Below, one piece after another: positions 10,486 to 63,925 of a stretch of 64,000 bases of DNA. Position 1 is the stretch's first letter. Each line of letters begins with the position of its first letter. A program made the translations under genes and the position numbers. The DNA comes from Vampirovibrionales bacterium (GTDB lineage Bacteria; Cyanobacteriota; Vampirovibrionia; Vampirovibrionales; JAJTHC01): positions 20,818 to 84,817 of the forward strand of contig JBIIZQ010000005.1 in NCBI GenBank assembly GCA_044346175.1, written 5' to 3'. The notes below the pieces were generated by a model. That model saw only the letters and a list, made by a program, of their open reading frames with translations, did not search any database and had not been told where the DNA came from.

Positions 10486-12468
10486 ATGTCCTACGGTTTT
10501 TTCTCATTGTTACTTAAAATAGTATTCGTGGCTTTGTTAGTAATCCCCTTGGTGGGCATCATCGCAATGATGCTTGTTTGTATAGAATTACTCGTTTTAG
10601 GGTATCTAACAGTTACACTGATTAGAATATGCTCTTGGATTAAGCGCGCAGGGGGAAAACTGGTTTCCGACATTTGGTCACTTTGGGTAGATATTCATCC
10701 TTTCAAGAAAGAATTTTGGAATGGGCATTCCTTTAGCTTGCTATTCCATACATGCCATGATGTCCTGATGAAAAACTGGCTTTCGGATAACGCCCTAGTA
10801 GACATACTGGAAATGTTGGCTGACCGTTTTGCCTCTTTCTTTATGCGTATTATGACTATCGTATGGGATATGCTGAAAGTTGGTTTACTCGTACTGATGC
10901 CTTCTATCATTCTAGTTCTTACAGTGCCAAGCTTTAGAAACAAACCCCAGATAGAGTCGGTTCTTCAAGCGTGTAGCAATAACGCTCTAATACAGGATTT
11001 GTTTTACAAAGCCAAAAAAAACGAAAACGATTCTTCCAAATCCCAAATTGATTTCCAGAAGCTTGCCGAATTTATTAGAAACAAACCCCAGATAGAGTCG
11101 GTTCTTCAAGCGTGTAGCAATAACGCTCTAATACAGGATTTGTTTTACGAAGACAAAAAAAACGAAAACGATTCTTCCAAATCCCAAATTGATTTCCAGA
11201 AGCTTGCCGAATTTATTGGAAAACTTACCGTTCTTTTTGCAGCCTTAACCTTGATATTTAACTACTACAAGCACCGTAATGATGAAGCCAAAAACCTTAT
11301 TAAAGACTGGCTTCATACCTCTGAAGGAAAGCTCATTTGTGATGTGCTTGAAAATGAACTTTCAGTGATTGAACACCCTTTTCATAAACAAGACAAAGAT
11401 AAAACTGACTTCTTAGTAGATTGGAGCTATACAGGGCCTGCAACACTCATTATTCAAAGTAAAACCGATCCAAAGTTTAAGGATTTATCTTTAACGTTTG
11501 CACAGTGGTGGCTAAATGCTTACAACCTGATTGAAAAAGATGACTCCAAAGACCGCTCCTATGCTGATGTTTTAAGCAAAGCCATAAGACCATTTAGCCT
11601 ATGTCTGACACAAAACGAAGCATGCAAGGAACGCAAGGAATGCCAAGAATGCAAAAGCATCACAACATTAAAAGACTTACTAGAGGTTTGTAAAACCATT
11701 GCGGAACAAAAGGGAAACGGCATTTTTATACGTACGATGCAGGGCTATCCCGAACTATTAAAAGGTTTAGAACATGAGGTAAGGGAGCAACATTTCTTTA
11801 ACGACATTCTTTCGCCAGACCTTTTAAATAAAACGCCTGAGCAATTGCTGGTGTCTCCTACGACCCTTATCACCTATACTTATTACTTCTTATCAAGACG
11901 ATATCTATCAGTTATCAATGCTTTTTACAATGCTATTGCGGATAAAAAAGTAAACTTGAGTTATGCAGAAAAGCAACTCATTTTCGCTTTTGATACCTTT
12001 TTTCAAAGCTTACGTAAGGTGGCACTGAGCATCAAACAACGCAACGTGACGTATGACGATGTAGAACCCACCGTATGGTATTGGCTTGACCGTATTGAGT
12101 ATCTCATTGTAGAAGGTAGACTTAAAGACCCTAAATACGAATACTACTCTTTCGTTGCCCATTATATTATAAGAGACTACCCTGAGATTTTTGAACTCCT
12201 TGCACGTCGACATCTTGATTGGCAAATCAGCTGGCGTAAGCCTCGGTATCGAACCTTAAAGCAACAAAAACATCGTGAAGCTTACAATGCTGTGATTAAA
12301 AAGATGATTTCAGACAATGAAAAAGCAATGAAAAAAGCTACAGAAACCCCCTACGAACCTTTAAAATTCTATGAAGACCTCGCCATTGAGCTTTCTGAAC
12401 TCAAACGAATCCAACTCCTCAAAAAGAGTCTTTACGTGAGGATGAAATGCGAAAGCTTAAAGGAGTAG
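10486..12468 (+). CDS. Hypothetical membrane protein with a bilobed N-terminal hydrophobic domain, an internal 47-aa tandem duplication and a K/E/N-rich C-terminus (effector-like)
   Basis: The gene is distinctly AT-rich compared with its flanks. There is an N-terminal ~45-aa bilobed hydrophobic segment and a second TM segment. No recognisable catalytic domain. Confidence 0.5.
   Translation: MSYGFFSLLLKIVFVALLVIPLVGIIAMMLVCIELLVLGYLTVTLIRICSWIKRAGGKLVSDIWSLWVDIHPFKKEFWNGHSFSLLFHTCHDVLMKNWLSDNALVDILEMLADRFASFFMRIMTIVWDMLKVGLLVLMPSIILVLTVPSFRNKPQIESVLQACSNNALIQDLFYKAKKNENDSSKSQIDFQKLAEFIRNKPQIESVLQACSNNALIQDLFYEDKKNENDSSKSQIDFQKLAEFIGKLTVLFAALTLIFNYYKHRNDEAKNLIKDWLHTSEGKLICDVLENELSVIEHPFHKQDKDKTDFLVDWSYTGPATLIIQSKTDPKFKDLSLTFAQWWLNAYNLIEKDDSKDRSYADVLSKAIRPFSLCLTQNEACKERKECQECKSITTLKDLLEVCKTIAEQKGNGIFIRTMQGYPELLKGLEHEVREQHFFNDILSPDLLNKTPEQLLVSPTTLITYTYYFLSRRYLSVINAFYNAIADKKVNLSYAEKQLIFAFDTFFQSLRKVALSIKQRNVTYDDVEPTVWYWLDRIEYLIVEGRLKDPKYEYYSFVAHYIIRDYPEIFELLARRHLDWQISWRKPRYRTLKQQKHREAYNAVIKKMISDNEKAMKKATETPYEPLKFYEDLAIELSELKRIQLLKKSLYVRMKCESLKE
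10936..11217 (+). repeat. Intragenic near-perfect tandem duplication (2 x 141 bp, 47 aa each)
   Basis: agaaacaaaccccagatagagtcggttcttcaagcgtgtagcaataacgctctaatacaggatttgtttta... is repeated head-to-tail with only 3-4 substitutions (K->E, A->D). Confidence 0.9.
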
Positions 12469-14515: not shown

Positions 14516-14585
14516 GTCATACCGACGAAAGTCGGTATCCAGCTCCTTATGCCTCTTGGATTCCGACCTGCGTCGGAATGACGAC
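14516..14585. repeat. MITE/REP-like palindromic element, copy 1 (two hairpins)
   Basis: Hairpin 1 is gtcATACCGACgaaaGTCGGTATcc. Hairpin 2 is ggATTCCGACctgcGTCGGAATgacgac. The same termini occur in inverted orientation at 41965..42085. Confidence 0.8.
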
Positions 14586-18820: not shown

Positions 18821-19974
18821 AAAGCGTAAGGCAACTTCAATAACAGGGAAAACAAGGAGGAAACGGTGACCTAAGTAAGCCTTAAAGACTCAAGGACCAA
18901 TGGAGTCTCCCATGTAGAAGCAGCCATGCAATAATGCGTATGTTTTAAAACCTGTGTTGTGACAATCAAGAGAGTCGTAAGGGGATGGTGTTTTAATGAA
19001 ACCACCATACATAAACCCACTGTTAAACATTTTACTTTCATGGAGAACCAGTGTTTGCATTAAAACTTAAAGCTGAATGGGGTTTAAGGTTAAAGATTTC
19101 GTGCAGTAACGAGAGATTGATGCACGTCGTGATACGATAAAACACCCTCAACAAAAAGCAGTGCGTCCAAAACCCAAAACACATGCTAGGGTTCAGGGCA
19201 GCATGTGAGTTGAAAGACTCACATTGACTGCGATACACTTATTCAAAAATCCAAAAAAGCAACATGACACAATCTTGTAGCACTCCACGGAGGTTATGAG
19301 GGTCTTGAAACCTCAACATACCACTTCCATGACAGTTGTTGGGTATTAACCTCAACAACCAAGTATCTCTGTGCCTTAAGCAGGATACTTTCGGCATCAC
19401 TTCCCTTTTTGTGAAGTTACTTTAGAGATGGCACTCTAAGAAGAAACCAGGCAGTTTCAAAGGCAACCGCACATACTTTTGAAGGATGCACCTCTACAGG
19501 GCAATGTTATTATGCGTGAAATAAACCCACGATACAAGCCCTTATCTCTCATAAAGAAAGCATGTAACGCAAAGATGTAACATCCTGTGAATGTCGGTCT
19601 GGTGTCGTCCTGTAACGAAATGTTACAATCGGGCTTTTTTGTCAAAAGCAATCTTATTTCAAAGGGTAAGTTTGATGAAACTTTGTTAAAATAACAGGAT
19701 GCTCTTCTACAGTGTTAATAATGTAATAATGTTGCATTAAATGTATCTTTTTCATATACTCTATTTGTATAGAGTACTTGAGATAGATATTTTAAGCTCT
19801 GTTTTAGGCTGATACGTTCTGGTTTCGGTAACTGCCTGAGTGATGATATTCGTTTTAAATGATGTGTGTGTGCTACCCATTTGCTTCATCACAATGTTGA
19901 AACCTAGCCATTCTTTTTTATTCTCTAGATTGTTCACGTATTTTAAAATTGTTTCATAAGGTCTTACAAAGGAT

Positions 19975-52431: not shown

Positions 52432-52815
52432 ATGACAAGCCTCGGATTTTGCCAACCTACTGCCAACTATTGCCGTCCTCAATTTGGTGGATTTCATAGA
52501 GGCTACGCCCAAGGGTATTATCAAGGAGCTGCGAATATGAATCATCAGTGGCATAACTGGTACAACAATGCTTTTTGTCAGCCTCAAACATGGCAGTCTT
52601 CCTATTGTTTACCTAGTACTTACACCAATAGCTGGGCGAATGCCAGTGCTTATGCCAATGCGGGTAGTTGGGGTGGTAACGCCTATGCGAATGCGTATGC
52701 TTATGCAGGGGCAGGCTCTGGAGCCAATGCGTATGCCTATGCCAATGCGAGTGCAGGAAGCTGGGGCGGTAATGCCTATGCGAATGCGTACGCTTATGCA
52801 GGAGCTTGGAGCTAA
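52432..52815 (+). CDS. Small Cys-containing Tyr/Asn/Ala/Gly-rich repeat protein (127 aa; ~31-aa repeat ...SWGGNAYANAYAYAGA...)
   Basis: It has a good RBS, a candidate promoter and a strong terminator immediately downstream. The DNA carries ~93-bp tandem repeats. Overlapping ORFs in other frames (including a His-rich reverse frame) are by-products of the repeats. Confidence 0.5.
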   Translation: MTSLGFCQPTANYCRPQFGGFHRGYAQGYYQGAANMNHQWHNWYNNAFCQPQTWQSSYCLPSTYTNSWANASAYANAGSWGGNAYANAYAYAGAGSGANAYAYANASAGSWGGNAYANAYAYAGAWS

Positions 52816-59519: not shown

Positions 59520-59591
59520 TGCGATTCCTGGGATTCGAACCCAGGACCTATCCCTTAAAAGGGGAGTGCTCTACCGCTGAGCTAGAATCGC
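59520..59591 (-). tRNA. tRNA-Lys (anticodon UUU)
   Basis: The reverse complement folds as a canonical cloverleaf: acceptor GCGATTC/GAATCGC with discriminator A, D-arm GCTC-AGCGGTA-GAGC, anticodon loop CTTTTAA (U33, UUU, A37), and T-arm CTGGG-TTCGAAT-CCCAG. No encoded CCA. Confidence 0.85.
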
Positions 59592-61484: not shown

Positions 61485-62405
61485 ATGAATTCCTCTTTTC
61501 AAACTCTCCCTAACGCTACTGTTAAGCCTGACTGGCTCAAGGTGAAGCTGCGTACACACGAGCCTTGGCTACAGGATATGAAAAACCACGTCAAGCAACA
61601 GGGGCTTAGTACGGTGTGCCAAGAAGCCCAGTGTCCTAACCTCAGTGAGTGTTGGGCTGGGGGTACCGTCACACTGATGCTCATGGGGGATACCTGCACC
61701 CGAGGGTGTCGTTTTTGTAACGTTAAAACAGGAAATCCCCATGGCTGGTTGGATGAGGAAGAACCTCAAAAAGTAGCCCAAATGGTGGCACAAGGGGCTT
61801 GGCAGTATGTTGTTTTAACCGTTGTAAACCGAGACGACCTTCCTGATGCTGGGGCGGGGCATATTGTTCGGGTATTGGAAGCCATTCGTGAAGCCTCGCC
61901 GAGTACGGTGATAGAAACGCTCCTTCCTGATTTTAATGGCCAGGTTACTCAATTTCAGCAAATCCAAGCCACAAGTCCCACACCCCCTGAAGTGATTGCC
62001 CATAATATGGAAACGGTCGAGCGGTTAACCCCCCTTGTAAGAGATAGACGTGCGACGTATGCTCAAAGCCTTGCACTTTTACAATGGTTTAGTGACCACC
62101 GTATAGGCAAACAACTTGTTAAGACCTCTTTGATGGTAGGTTTAGGTGAAACCGATATAGAGCTTGACCAAACCCTTGAAGCCCTTCGTGTTGCTGGGGT
62201 GGATATTGTGACGTTTGGGCAGTATTTACAGCCTACGCCTAAACATTTACCTGTGGTGACTTACCAGCCACCCGAGTGGTTTGCACATTGGGAGACCCGT
62301 GCAAAAGAGGTTTTTGGATTTAAAGGGGTTTTTGCGGGTAGCTTTGTCCGAAGCTCCTACAAAGCGGGTGCTTTATACCAAGAGGTTTTCGCTCGTAGGG
62401 GATAA
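61485..62405 (+). CDS. lipA: Lipoyl synthase
   Basis: N-terminal auxiliary cluster CQEAQCPNLSECW and radical-SAM CTRGCRFC, with a conserved C-terminal region. Confidence 0.9.
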   Translation: MNSSFQTLPNATVKPDWLKVKLRTHEPWLQDMKNHVKQQGLSTVCQEAQCPNLSECWAGGTVTLMLMGDTCTRGCRFCNVKTGNPHGWLDEEEPQKVAQMVAQGAWQYVVLTVVNRDDLPDAGAGHIVRVLEAIREASPSTVIETLLPDFNGQVTQFQQIQATSPTPPEVIAHNMETVERLTPLVRDRRATYAQSLALLQWFSDHRIGKQLVKTSLMVGLGETDIELDQTLEALRVAGVDIVTFGQYLQPTPKHLPVVTYQPPEWFAHWETRAKEVFGFKGVFAGSFVRSSYKAGALYQEVFARRG

Positions 62406-62448
62406 TCTGTCTGAGGTAATCATAACCTCTCTAGAACCGCTGGATGCC

Positions 62449-62866
62449 GTAGGGGACGGTTTATAACCGTCCCGCAAAAACCCACCGTAAAAACGACAAA
62501 TGTCATACACAAACAACCCTAACGGGAGGGTTACAAACCCTCCCCTACGTTACGTTTCAATTATCTTACACCGTCTCTGATGCGGGTCGACATCCAGCAT
62601 GTGTTCTGTAGGGGACGGTTTATAACCGTCTCGCAAAACCCCCACCGTAAACACGACAAACGGCATACACAAACAACCCTAACGGGAGGGTTATAAACCC
62701 TCCCCTACGTTACGTTTCAATTATCTTACACCGCCTCCGATGCGGGTCGACATCCAGCATGTGTTCTGTAGGGGACGGTTTATAACCGTCCCGCAAAAAC
62801 CCACGGTAAAAACGACAAACGGCATACACAAACAACCCTAACGGGAGGGTTATAAACCCTCCCCTA
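62449..62866. repeat. Tandem array (2.6 copies) of a 159-160-bp composite unit carrying two GC-rich 9-bp-stem hairpins with TAT/ATA loops
   Basis: Each unit holds GGGACGGTTtatAACCGTCCC, about 45 nt of A/C-rich spacer, and GGGAGGGTTataAACCCTCCC. Copies differ by only a few SNPs. It sits in the convergent gap between lipA and ORF 63053. Confidence 0.9.
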
Positions 62867-63052
62867 CAATAGGGATAGCATGGGGATGATGTAAGATACG
62901 TGAAAACGGTTTTTAGGTGCAAGCCTTCATGCGATTGACCTGTGCCAGCTTTTTGTTTTGCCTATCGGCTAGGGTGTGCGAGTTGGCATAAGCATTCAGG
63001 GAATCCTTCTTGATTCAGAAAGACTCCCTGAAGCCTCGTTGCGATGAAAGGA

Positions 63053-63925
63053 TTAAGTGGAGGGTTGGTATCTCAGAATGTCACCTAAAGTGGTATTCCC
63101 TAAGTTACCATTTGCACCCGCTGTGGCATCAGCAGCGGCGGTGGCTACTTTCTCAACAAAGGTTGTATCAAAATAACCTGTTTGGCAACCGTTAGGGGTT
63201 CGTACGTTCATGTGGATTTTGTACTCACCGTTTTCAACGACAATCCGCTTTGCCATGGCATTGTTAGCCCCGTCAATTTCTTGACCTGTCGATACCGTTA
63301 AGCCGTTGGCATTGATGGGTGCAAAGTTACCGCCGAAGAGGTTGCCTGCACGCATGTAACTATTCCCTTGTTTCACAAGAATGTCGCCACGTTGTCCTTT
63401 GCTACCATCGGCAAGTACAAAACTATCATCGTTGTTGGCAAGGGTAATCACGCCACCCCCATTAAACTCATAGCGTCCGACCCCAGGCCCGTTTAGGTCG
63501 CCTTTCACCCCTACGCCTGCAATTTGTAAACCACTGGAAGGGTCAACCAGCAATTCTTTACGTTCCCCATGATTGATGGGGAAGGTTCCCATTTCACCTT
63601 TGGTGTAGTTCCACCATTCGGGGTCGCCACAAATGCCCGCTGAGTTTAAAGGGTTATTGGGTGCAGGTGGCGGAGGTGGCGGCGGTGGTGTAGGTGGTAA
63701 AGGTGGTGGTGGTGTAGGTGGTAAAGGAGTAGGTGGTAAAGGAGGAGGCGGAGGTGGACACGGTGGGGGTGGACATGCCGCTTGTTGTTGATAGAACCAG
63801 TTTCCTTGCTCATACCAGCTGCCTGTAAATTGTTGTGCCATGGCAAGGGCTTGTTGCTGATAAGCCAGTGCAAAAGCCATTTCTTGGCTGTTATCTCGTG
63901 CCATGTAGTTGGATAGGCTTCCCAT
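63053..63925 (-). CDS. Hypothetical protein with a Q-rich N-terminus, a ~40-residue polyproline linker (PPPPCPPPPPPLPPTPLPPTPPPPLPPTPPPPPPPPAP) and a Gly/Asn-rich C-terminal domain
   Basis: No domain was recognised in the long ORF. The proline run is encoded by GC-rich ggtgg/aggtgg repeats on the plus strand. The N-terminus may extend upstream of the ORF-track start, possibly to the window edge. Confidence 0.45.
   Translation of the reverse strand: MGSLSNYMARDNSQEMAFALAYQQQALAMAQQFTGSWYEQGNWFYQQQAACPPPPCPPPPPPLPPTPLPPTPPPPLPPTPPPPPPPPAPNNPLNSAGICGDPEWWNYTKGEMGTFPINHGERKELLVDPSSGLQIAGVGVKGDLNGPGVGRYEFNGGGVITLANNDDSFVLADGSKGQRGDILVKQGNSYMRAGNLFGGNFAPINANGLTVSTGQEIDGANNAMAKRIVVENGEYKIHMNVRTPNGCQTGYFDTTFVEKVATAAADATAGANGNLGNTTLGDILRYQPST

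Follow-up and report, generated by a model that had tools for sequence, protein, structure and literature searches.

What is the block of palindromic tandem repeats that separates lipA from the convergent gene beyond it in a Vampirovibrionales MAG? The window, meaning the whole 64,000-nucleotide stretch of DNA analysed here, carries this block in the 647-nt gap between lipA and a convergent minus-strand ORF with a proline-rich product (stop at 63053), and the block is extragenic within that gap. Our analysis identifies it, with a probability of roughly 0.8, as a cluster of GTAG-tagged REPs that are organized as REPIN-like doublets in a BIME-2-like order and are known here from one locus. The REP class itself is known, as selfish DNA moved by RayT transposases; what is notable is the occurrence at a single site, the host (a little-studied Vampirovibrionales MAG) and a hairpin that is near-identical across many phyla. 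For the window, the result is mainly one of annotation, concerning a 420-bp block which one might otherwise take for a CRISPR-like array, a locus of small RNAs or a stack of terminators.

Tandem Repeats Finder describes the array with a period of 160, 2.6 copies, 94% matches and a score of 766, and this call, together with the orientation of the adjacent ORFs, agrees with the original prediction of 2.6 copies of a 159–160-bp unit between convergent 3′ ends. The hairpin pattern GGGAsGGTTnnnAACCsTCCC has six matches in the 64-kb window, all of them in the array (shuffle expectation 0.10). Each hairpin combines a GC-rich 9-bp stem with a 3-nt loop and measures 25 nt with its tag: read on the tag-stem strand, GTAG adjoins the stem at 0 nt in six of six hairpins, a feature that the original prediction had missed. 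Pairing is perfect in five of the six stems, and the remaining one contains a single mismatch. Stems and loops are otherwise as first described, except that the hairpins had all been called perfect, whereas the mismatch (GTCTC) sits in the first one of unit 2, and that the loop of the second hairpin of unit 1 is ACA rather than ATA. Similarly, the copies had been said to differ by isolated SNPs only; isolated substitutions are indeed present, together with one 1-nt indel, an insertion in the unit 2 core that explains the spacing of 160 and 159.

Because GTAG precedes every hairpin, each hairpin pair constitutes terminal inverted repeats of 26–27 nt (GTAGGGGACGGTTTATAACCGTCCCG and CGGGAGGGTTATAAACCCTCCCCTAC), which are 89–93% complementary and lie 48 nt apart. 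The array is made up of three 100-nt head-to-head REP doublets (REPIN-like heterodimers) joined by two 59-nt linkers (Table 1). In each doublet, two REP variants, with the stems GGGACGG and GGGAGGG, point their tags outward across an A/C-rich core of 48–50 nt. Changes among the copies number 1 in the 44 positions of tag and stem versus 7 in the 50-nt core. Folded as single-stranded DNA, the doublet has as its minimum-energy structure one long hairpin (−21.4 kcal/mol, z = −5.0), and the alternative register H2–linker–H1 folds as well. For the whole array, the z values are −7.1 (plus strand) and −5.5 (minus strand). The original prediction had proposed folding as a check, and these values, about −5 for each doublet, speak for a REP cluster.

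Table 1. Features of the REP array and its surroundings, in window coordinates.
Feature	Position	Strand	Description
lipA	61485–62405	+	Radical_SAM protein; JGI name lipoic acid synthetase
Left flank	62406–62448	.	43 nt, lipA stop codon to array
Whole array	62449–62867		three doublets, two linkers
REP doublet 1	62449–62548	+	head-to-head, 100 nt: GTAG, H1 (GGGACGGTT-TAT-AACCGTCCC), A/C-rich core, H2 (GGGAGGGTT-ACA-AACCCTCCC), CTAC; direct-repeat family, inverted repeat with 27-nt arms 89% complementary, hairpins
REP H1, copy 1	62449–62473	+	GTAG 62449–62452; 9-bp stem and 3-nt loop 62453–62473
Core (doublet spacer), copy 1	62474–62523	+	50 nt, 82% A+C, private to the locus among the sequences searched
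REP H2, copy 1	62524–62548	-	hairpin 62524–62544, CTAC 62545–62548; GTAG and hairpin on the minus strand
Linker 1	62549–62607	+	59 nt, doublet 1 CTAC to doublet 2 GTAG
REP doublet 2	62608–62708	+	101 nt; one stem mismatch in H1 (GTCTC), 1-nt insertion in core
Linker 2	62709–62767	+	59 nt, 57/59 positions the same as in linker 1
REP doublet 3	62768–62867	+	100 nt, 96% identity to doublet 1; folds as one long hairpin
Right flank	62868–63052	.	185 nt, array to stop of the convergent ORF
Separate hairpin in right flank	62995–63032		16 bp, imperfect

Tandem repeats of this kind raise the question of whether the arrangement is a short-read assembly artefact of a single REP doublet. Parts of the array are present in two further, independent assemblies. 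One, Logan contig L118, stops within the first hairpin (at 62476); the other, ENA contig L177 from the same strain, carries the unit-2 variants in its last unit, unlike the window's arrangement, and both observations are of the sort that an artefact would leave behind. L177 nevertheless covers 62645–63300 at 99% identity, and thereby independently the core, H2, the linker, a full doublet and the right flank, which establishes that the array is real. Moreover, the units can be told apart at diagnostic positions, as can the linkers at 2 of 59, and lipA-carrying contigs of 139 kb and 153 kb are on record. We consider an artefact exceedingly improbable. The exact arrangement and copy number may, judging from L177, reflect a difference between samples or a partial collapse, and the identity of the block as a REP cluster accounts for short-read assembly breaks at the array.

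How does this anatomy compare with known repeats? Under the operational definition of Quentin et al. (PMC6006769), a REP has GTAG or GTGG 0–2 nt 5′ of a fully paired stem of 7–20 bp with a 2–5-nt loop; the total size that we applied was 20–40 bp. The account of Di Nocera, De Gregorio and Rocco (2013; PMC3733652) places the tag of GTAG REPs at one end of a 6–13-bp stem with a 2–3-nt loop, and describes frequent head-to-head dimers with conserved spacers of 20–100 bp, many of them heterodimers, a location mainly between convergent or unidirectional ORFs, and clusters in which there are "dimers reiterated in tandem with flanking DNA". Tag, stem, loop, size and location between convergent genes all place the array among REPs; it begins 44 nt past the lipA stop and finishes 186 nt short of that of the convergent ORF. 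With the GTAG REP superfamily, including the Stenotrophomonas SMAG repeats, it has in common the tag, the size of stem and loop, head-to-head dimers, often of two variants, with outward tags and conserved spacers, sites between convergent ORFs, tandem clusters of dimers with flanking DNA and an association with RayT, which in the present case comes from other genomes. The superfamily consists of dispersed families, whereas the window array is known from one locus, and the stem GGGAsGGTT..AACCsTCCC has no occurrence in the searchable text and supplements of PMC3733652.

The doublets also have the structure of REPINs, that is, inverted REPs across a short spacer that fold into one long hairpin. 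By definition, REPINs are dispersed as whole doublets, as a population in one genome (PMC3116915, Bertels and Rainey 2011; PMC5581495, Bertels et al. 2017). Those of Pseudomonas fluorescens share with the array the inverted REPs, the short spacer, the single long hairpin and the presumed mobilization in trans by a single-copy RayT, but they disperse as doublets, whereas the window doublet is known only from local tandem copies. At the next level of organization, the order H1–core–H2–linker, with two REP variants alternating in orientation, is repeated as in a BIME, and the likeness to BIME-like REP clusters that had been pointed out earlier is reinforced by the GTAG tags and head-to-head doublets. 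A close match in layout is E. coli BIME-2, the architecture of which is reportedly as described by Bachellier, Gilson, Hofnung and colleagues: two REP variants, alternating orientation and two alternating conserved motifs, in tandem and intergenic, are shared, with no sequence relation to the window array beyond GTAG. Inter-REP segments of BIME-2 are shorter than the 48–50 and 59 nt found here, and the IHF consensus between REPs that is a feature of E. coli BIME-1/RIP is lacking in the window array. A CRISPR array, which requires unique spacers, had already been rejected on the grounds that the inter-hairpin segments are themselves repeated, and rightly so: the linkers agree at 57 of 59 positions, and identity among the cores is 93–94%.

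Within the window, these REPs are confined to the array. Across the 63.5 kb outside it, neither the hairpin pattern nor a generic GTAG-hairpin detector turned up another copy, and the detector, which combines GTAG with a perfect hairpin, returned the six array sites and one AT-rich hit at chance level. The core and the linker occur nowhere else in the window, diverged copies included, nor among the ~170 loci that share the hairpin, and the whole doublet is seen only as three local tandem copies in the sequences searched. With core and linker found nowhere else, the 159-bp unit is not itself an element family, and the 25–29-nt tagged hairpin is the only part with a family. As for the ATTCCGAC-type MITE family from which the unit had been set apart, the window contains just two instances of its 8-mer, which form a single inverted pair at 14560–14579, and by itself the 8-mer demonstrates no such family.

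So local a distribution would suit a product of the site itself, namely a terminator-type hairpin that was duplicated in place, with no mobile-element ancestry and with a coincidental or convergent likeness to REPs. There is only one locus in 64 kb, core and linker are private, the linker may come from local intergenic DNA, and at this site a sister genome carries an unrelated 13-bp hairpin of its own. That hairpin, however, is unrelated in sequence to those of the array, the plus-strand hairpins are followed by no T-tract and the exact 25-nt sequence, GTAG included, recurs at more than 170 loci in many phyla where ~0.3 would be expected by chance, with matching loci linked to RayT genes. We therefore judge a purely local product to be improbable and favour a REP cluster.

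The wider distribution of the hairpin is as follows. The pattern GTAGGGGAsGGTTnnnAACCsTCCC (25 nt) is matched exactly in at least 117 stretches from species-representative genomes and, in a loop-restricted version, in 54 stretches of JGI metagenomes; simple arithmetic puts the chance expectation at ~0.3 matches in 596 Gb. Viral contigs yielded only two pattern matches, so that phages are no obvious vector. Among the matches listed, the genome hosts are all MAGs, and the hosts comprise Chloroflexota, Cyanobacteria, Melainabacteria, Omnitrophota, Firmicutes, Alphaproteobacteria, Bacteroidota, CPR lineages, Deinococcota and others. Common to the window and these loci are the tag and the hairpin only, without core or linker. 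At the free position of the stem (S...S), 216 of 218 distinct hairpins have complementary bases (G–C in 193, C–G in 23, non-complementary in 2), which identifies the stem as the conserved thing. The layout of the window array is typical of this hairpin: a census of the fetched loci recovered 29 head-to-head dimers with spacers of 12–140 nt, of which 23 are heterodimers, as well as 18 tail-to-tail dimers, and clusters of alternating orientation occur in a cyanobacterial MAG (L100) and at L170/L172. A literature search with the hairpin sequence or the encoded peptides gave no matches, and the searchable literature contained no papers joining REPs with Melainabacteria, Vampirovibrio, Omnitrophica or the Candidate Phyla Radiation.

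Which enzyme would mobilize such REPs? Among 171 loci fetched by the hairpin alone, 12 encode a single HUH/Y1 transposase family, found by seeding with the HUH-like ORF of L098 and later with a profile; all-against-all clustering of the ORFs neighbouring the hairpins detected no recurrent family, because the hairpins are dispersed. The family belongs to Pfam Y1_Tnp and carries the JGI name "REP element-mobilizing transposase RayT". The best PDB match of a 32-member profile is 4ER8, E. coli TnpA-REP (25 bits), and a single-sequence PDB search with one RayT returned no match. Aligned to 4ER8, the proteins display the HUH strand, the W-Q..(E/D)-H..R GTAG-contact residues and a YI.NP tyrosine motif, and thus share with the E. 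coli enzyme (Messing et al. 2012, PMC3479197) the HUH strand, W94, Q95, E/D100, H101, R104 and the catalytic-Tyr motif. The hairpin-associated clade differs from E. coli TnpA-REP in its low overall similarity and in ~24 extra residues, encoded by a REP copy, that follow the HUH motif. At L172, a RayT gene has these REPs on both sides, and at L178, where the RayT contains a different embedded palindrome, the flanking REP has the matching alternative stem. There is no RayT gene in the window and no Y1_Tnp in the annotated ~8–10 kb on each side of it; as the hairpin loci encode a RayT-like family, the window REP belongs to a class whose cognate enzyme elsewhere is a divergent RayT.

A different mobile origin has to be weighed at this point, in which each 100-nt element is a miniature IS200/IS605-type element, a palindrome-associated transposable element, with subterminal hairpins, moved by a classical TnpA-IS200 and not by RayT. 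Short non-coding elements with hairpins at both ends would look much the same, and the Pfam family of the associated proteins, Y1_Tnp, also covers IS200 transposases. The LE and RE hairpins of IS200/IS605 elements, however, lie on the same strand (IS608), unlike the two ends here, which are inverted repeats. The associated transposases have REP_Tyr_transpos as their best NCBIfam model, the REP-associated one, at 57–68 bits (below the equivalog cutoff of 80) versus 21–24 bits for the IS200 model (transpos_IS200), and they keep the GTAG-contact residues of TnpA-REP. Finally, each stem has a GTAG guide immediately on its 5′ side, the signature of REPs (PMC6006769). An IS200/IS605 derivation is accordingly unlikely, and we retain RayT as the probable partner of the window REPs.

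The RayT genes themselves hold a further feature. In the fetched loci, wherever the relevant part of the ORF is present, RayT homologs contain a REP copy inside the ORF, 6–15 residues after the HUH motif, which is translated as (V/R)(E/A/N/T)G(L/F/Y)KP(S/A/F/V)PT. Among 120 database RayT homologs, 69 have G.G..P.P, and ~20 more have the form REGYKPSPT. The residue pairs flanking the embedded REP (N-F in 45, T-V in 9, E-S in 6 and A-A in 3) correspond to complementary codons. The RayT of L178 is of the N-F type: GTAGGGAACGGTTTGAAACCGTTCCCTAC lies within its ORF, and a second REP with a matching stem overlaps its stop codon. In the profile alignment to 4ER8, the embedded segment falls in the ~24-residue insertion relative to the E. 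coli enzyme. A limited literature search found no earlier report of a REP inside a RayT ORF. The co-varying codon pairs of the embedded REP suggest that the RayT gene itself could be a substrate, a landing site or an autoregulatory target, and the embedding, if true, would account for recurrent metagenomic peptides such as VGEGLKPSPT and VGNGLKPFPT.

Taken at its widest, this pattern would amount to a REP–RayT system with a near-base-exact 25-nt tag-hairpin across MAGs of more than 15 phyla and with RayT genes carrying their own REP in frame, in a fixed loop close behind the HUH motif, with codon pairs that co-vary and preserve the stem; the window cluster would be a recent arrival of this system in Vampirovibrionales. 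We put this forward as a tentative proposal, possible but on present evidence doubtful. RAYTs are described as mostly vertically inherited and lineage-specific (PMC3116915, PMC5581495), whereas the REP sequence of the window is near-identical across many phyla, and near-identity over 25 nt in more than 15 phyla would argue for horizontal spread or extreme constraint and not for lineage-specific vertical pairs. Should the cross-phylum REP and its in-frame embedding hold up, they would offer a handle on the spread and self-regulation of REP–RayT systems, and these two aspects, conservation across phyla and embedding in the RayT frame, might be the parts worth more work.

A comparison of occupied and empty sites is provided by a sister Vampirovibrionales MAG (GCA_046080605.1), in which the ortholog of the downstream gene is 87% identical. 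There, the spacer between this gene and the C-terminal half of lipA measures 80 nt versus 647 nt here (contig L175 and, independently, Logan contig L176) and has the unrelated 13-bp hairpin, without a REP; no GC-rich GTAG hairpin was found in the ~22 kb of the sister MAG that were scanned. Being absent from the one sister genome compared, the cluster does not belong to lipA as a conserved feature. Outside the order, the nearest relative of lipA (L173, 61% identical) lacks both synteny and a REP. The case adds Vampirovibrionales, with an occupied-versus-empty site comparison, to REPs and RayTs that have been studied almost wholly in Proteobacteria.

Established REP–RayT systems (PMC3479197, PMC8266576, PMC3116915) provide the basis for a possible history of the locus. 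By analogy with them, a RayT recognising GTAG and the hairpin in single-stranded DNA would have delivered REPs to the convergent intergenic site, and the unit of doublet plus linker would then have multiplied locally, by slippage during replication or by unequal recombination. The one C/G difference in mid-stem between the partners of the heterodimer restricts the formation of a perfect long palindrome, as discussed in PMC3733652. Once transcribed, the stable hairpins at the 3′ ends of both converging transcripts could act against 3′ exonucleases and read-through; it is equally possible that the cluster is selfish DNA which the host tolerates and which has no role.

Another view would hold that the array is a tandem set of small structured RNAs, or a cis-regulatory 3′-UTR element under host selection, for the function of which any REP ancestry is irrelevant. 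It can draw on the very stable fold of both strands (z of −7.1 and −5.5), on the position at the 3′ ends of convergent genes and on stems that are conserved more than the core. Yet a promoter and terminator scan detected no promoter-like site in or beside the array, and Rfam 15 gave no match in the array at the gathering score, the best permissive hits, at ~22 bits, being to microRNA models with thresholds of 67–180 bits. The array is moreover absent from the sister genome site, and three copies offer too few substitutions for a covariation test. Host-selected RNA is thus a very improbable explanation, and the tandem small RNAs suggested in the original prediction lose their footing for want of a promoter-like site and an Rfam match. 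All terminator-like calls made use of a weak, alternative minus-strand stem of 8 pairs, in numbers not above the shuffle expectation, and no T-run follows the hairpins on the plus strand, so that the hairpins are not canonical intrinsic terminators. The terminator or insulator block of the original prediction is a conjectural role. An IHF-binding array, also contemplated earlier, is disfavoured as well: the consensus WATCAANNNNTTR has no match with at most one mismatch on either strand of 62406–63052.

For the REP cluster, two smaller matters concern the linkers and flanks. In reverse complement, the linker resembles both outer flanks of the array (both together in 2 of 5,000 shuffles) and the spacer of the sister genome, AGAACGCATGCTTG-TGTC (32 of 3,000 shuffles). 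This is suggestive only of the linker being an inverted copy of the empty site, and the similarity is a lead only, because it was picked after being seen; the likeness to the flanks agrees with the description of REPs as having "flanking DNA captured in clusters". Simple tandem duplication and inversion of a duplicated junction were both considered as sources of the linker, and neither gives the observed order of segments. A candidate for a decayed fourth REP over the lipA stop codon (GTAGGGGA at 62395) was likewise discarded: the match is limited to the 8-mer, and a score as good is reached by 76 of 969 tiles of the window.

At other loci, the same REP lies in frame inside the genes for ValRS, AspRS and class II ribonucleotide reductase. 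These in-frame REPs in the housekeeping genes of other genomes are what recalls the Rickettsia palindromic elements and other intragenic REPs, whereas the REPs of the window are extragenic; in-frame intragenic behaviour is known for other REP families, according to PMC3733652.

A copy of their own GTAG-tagged REP palindrome is embedded in the reading frame of RayT (HUH/Y1 transposase) genes belonging to the clade linked to this REP. Within these genes, the embedded copy occupies a fixed loop directly after the HUH motif, and the flanking codons co-vary (N-F, T-V, E-S and A-A), thereby preserving the stem. We found no published account of a REP embedded in a RayT reading frame in the searchable literature. 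In-frame REPs within genes are known for other REP families (PMC3733652), and the same REP also lies in frame within housekeeping genes of other loci, adding the peptide VGEGLKPSPT. More broadly, the 25-nt GTAG plus hairpin (fetched loci L001-L117, L119-L172 and L179-L180) is near-identical across metagenome-assembled genomes (MAGs) of many phyla. All its genome sources among the matches listed are MAGs, and among 2.9 million viral contigs just 2 contain it.

Features of the window and of fetched loci (L-numbers).
Feature	Location	Strand	Source
RayT gene with embedded REP	L098:1043-1624
RayT gene with embedded REP	L148:904-1449
RayT gene with embedded REP	L160:304-900
RayT gene with embedded REP	L136:6620-7102
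RayT gene with embedded REP	L164:1358-1789
RayT gene with embedded REP	L153:639-1235
RayT gene with embedded REP	L172:4776-5309
RayT gene with embedded REP	L178:10001-10555
ValRS with in-frame REP	L039:1854-4589
AspRS with in-frame REP	L094:1700-3586
Class II ribonucleotide reductase with in-frame REP	L084:2282-6202
Lysine riboswitch	window 19270-19504	-	Rfam, 74.7 bits
tRNA gene	window 59520-59591	-	Rfam

In reverse complement, the two linkers joining the REP doublets of the array (window 62549-62607 and 62709-62767) are similar to its outer flanks (62406-62448 and 62868-62950), as well as to the REP-free spacer at the lipA site of a sister Vampirovibrionales MAG (L175:11216-11295). The statistics of this sequence likeness are suggestive, and no mechanism accounts for the segment order. 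Contig L177 (ENA ERZ27272058), assembled independently from this strain, matches window 62645-63300, and its unit adjoining the right flank carries the unit-2 variants at 62791, 62799, 62805 and 62811, a pattern reflecting either array polymorphism or short-read collapse.

The adjacent lipA gene (61485-62405) is devoid of the N-terminal LIAS_N domain (PF16881) present in most homologs. Upstream of lipA, the window holds a Polyketide_cyc2 gene, whereas the sister MAG has a DNA methylase/HpaII-type restriction fusion gene (L174:8008-9981). An imperfect hairpin of 16 bp (TTCAGGGAATCCTTCT / AGAAAGACTCCCTGAA; 62995-63032) lies about 20 nt beyond the stop codon of the ORF that converges on lipA; it is separate from the REP array and may be that ORF's own 3' structure.

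Across the whole window, only the lysine riboswitch and the tRNA gene matched Rfam at gathering score. The original prediction also invoked a ATTCCGAC-type MITE family in the window, where this 8-mer occurs only twice, as one close inverted pair at 14560-14579; this count is at chance level, and the 8-mer alone therefore does not demonstrate such a family. Other repeats include a 141-bp unit present twice in tandem (10934-11222; 97% identity) in a low-GC region (0.39) and a 77-nt direct repeat (52636-52712 and 52729-52805; 82% identity) that lies within or next to a small predicted ORF.
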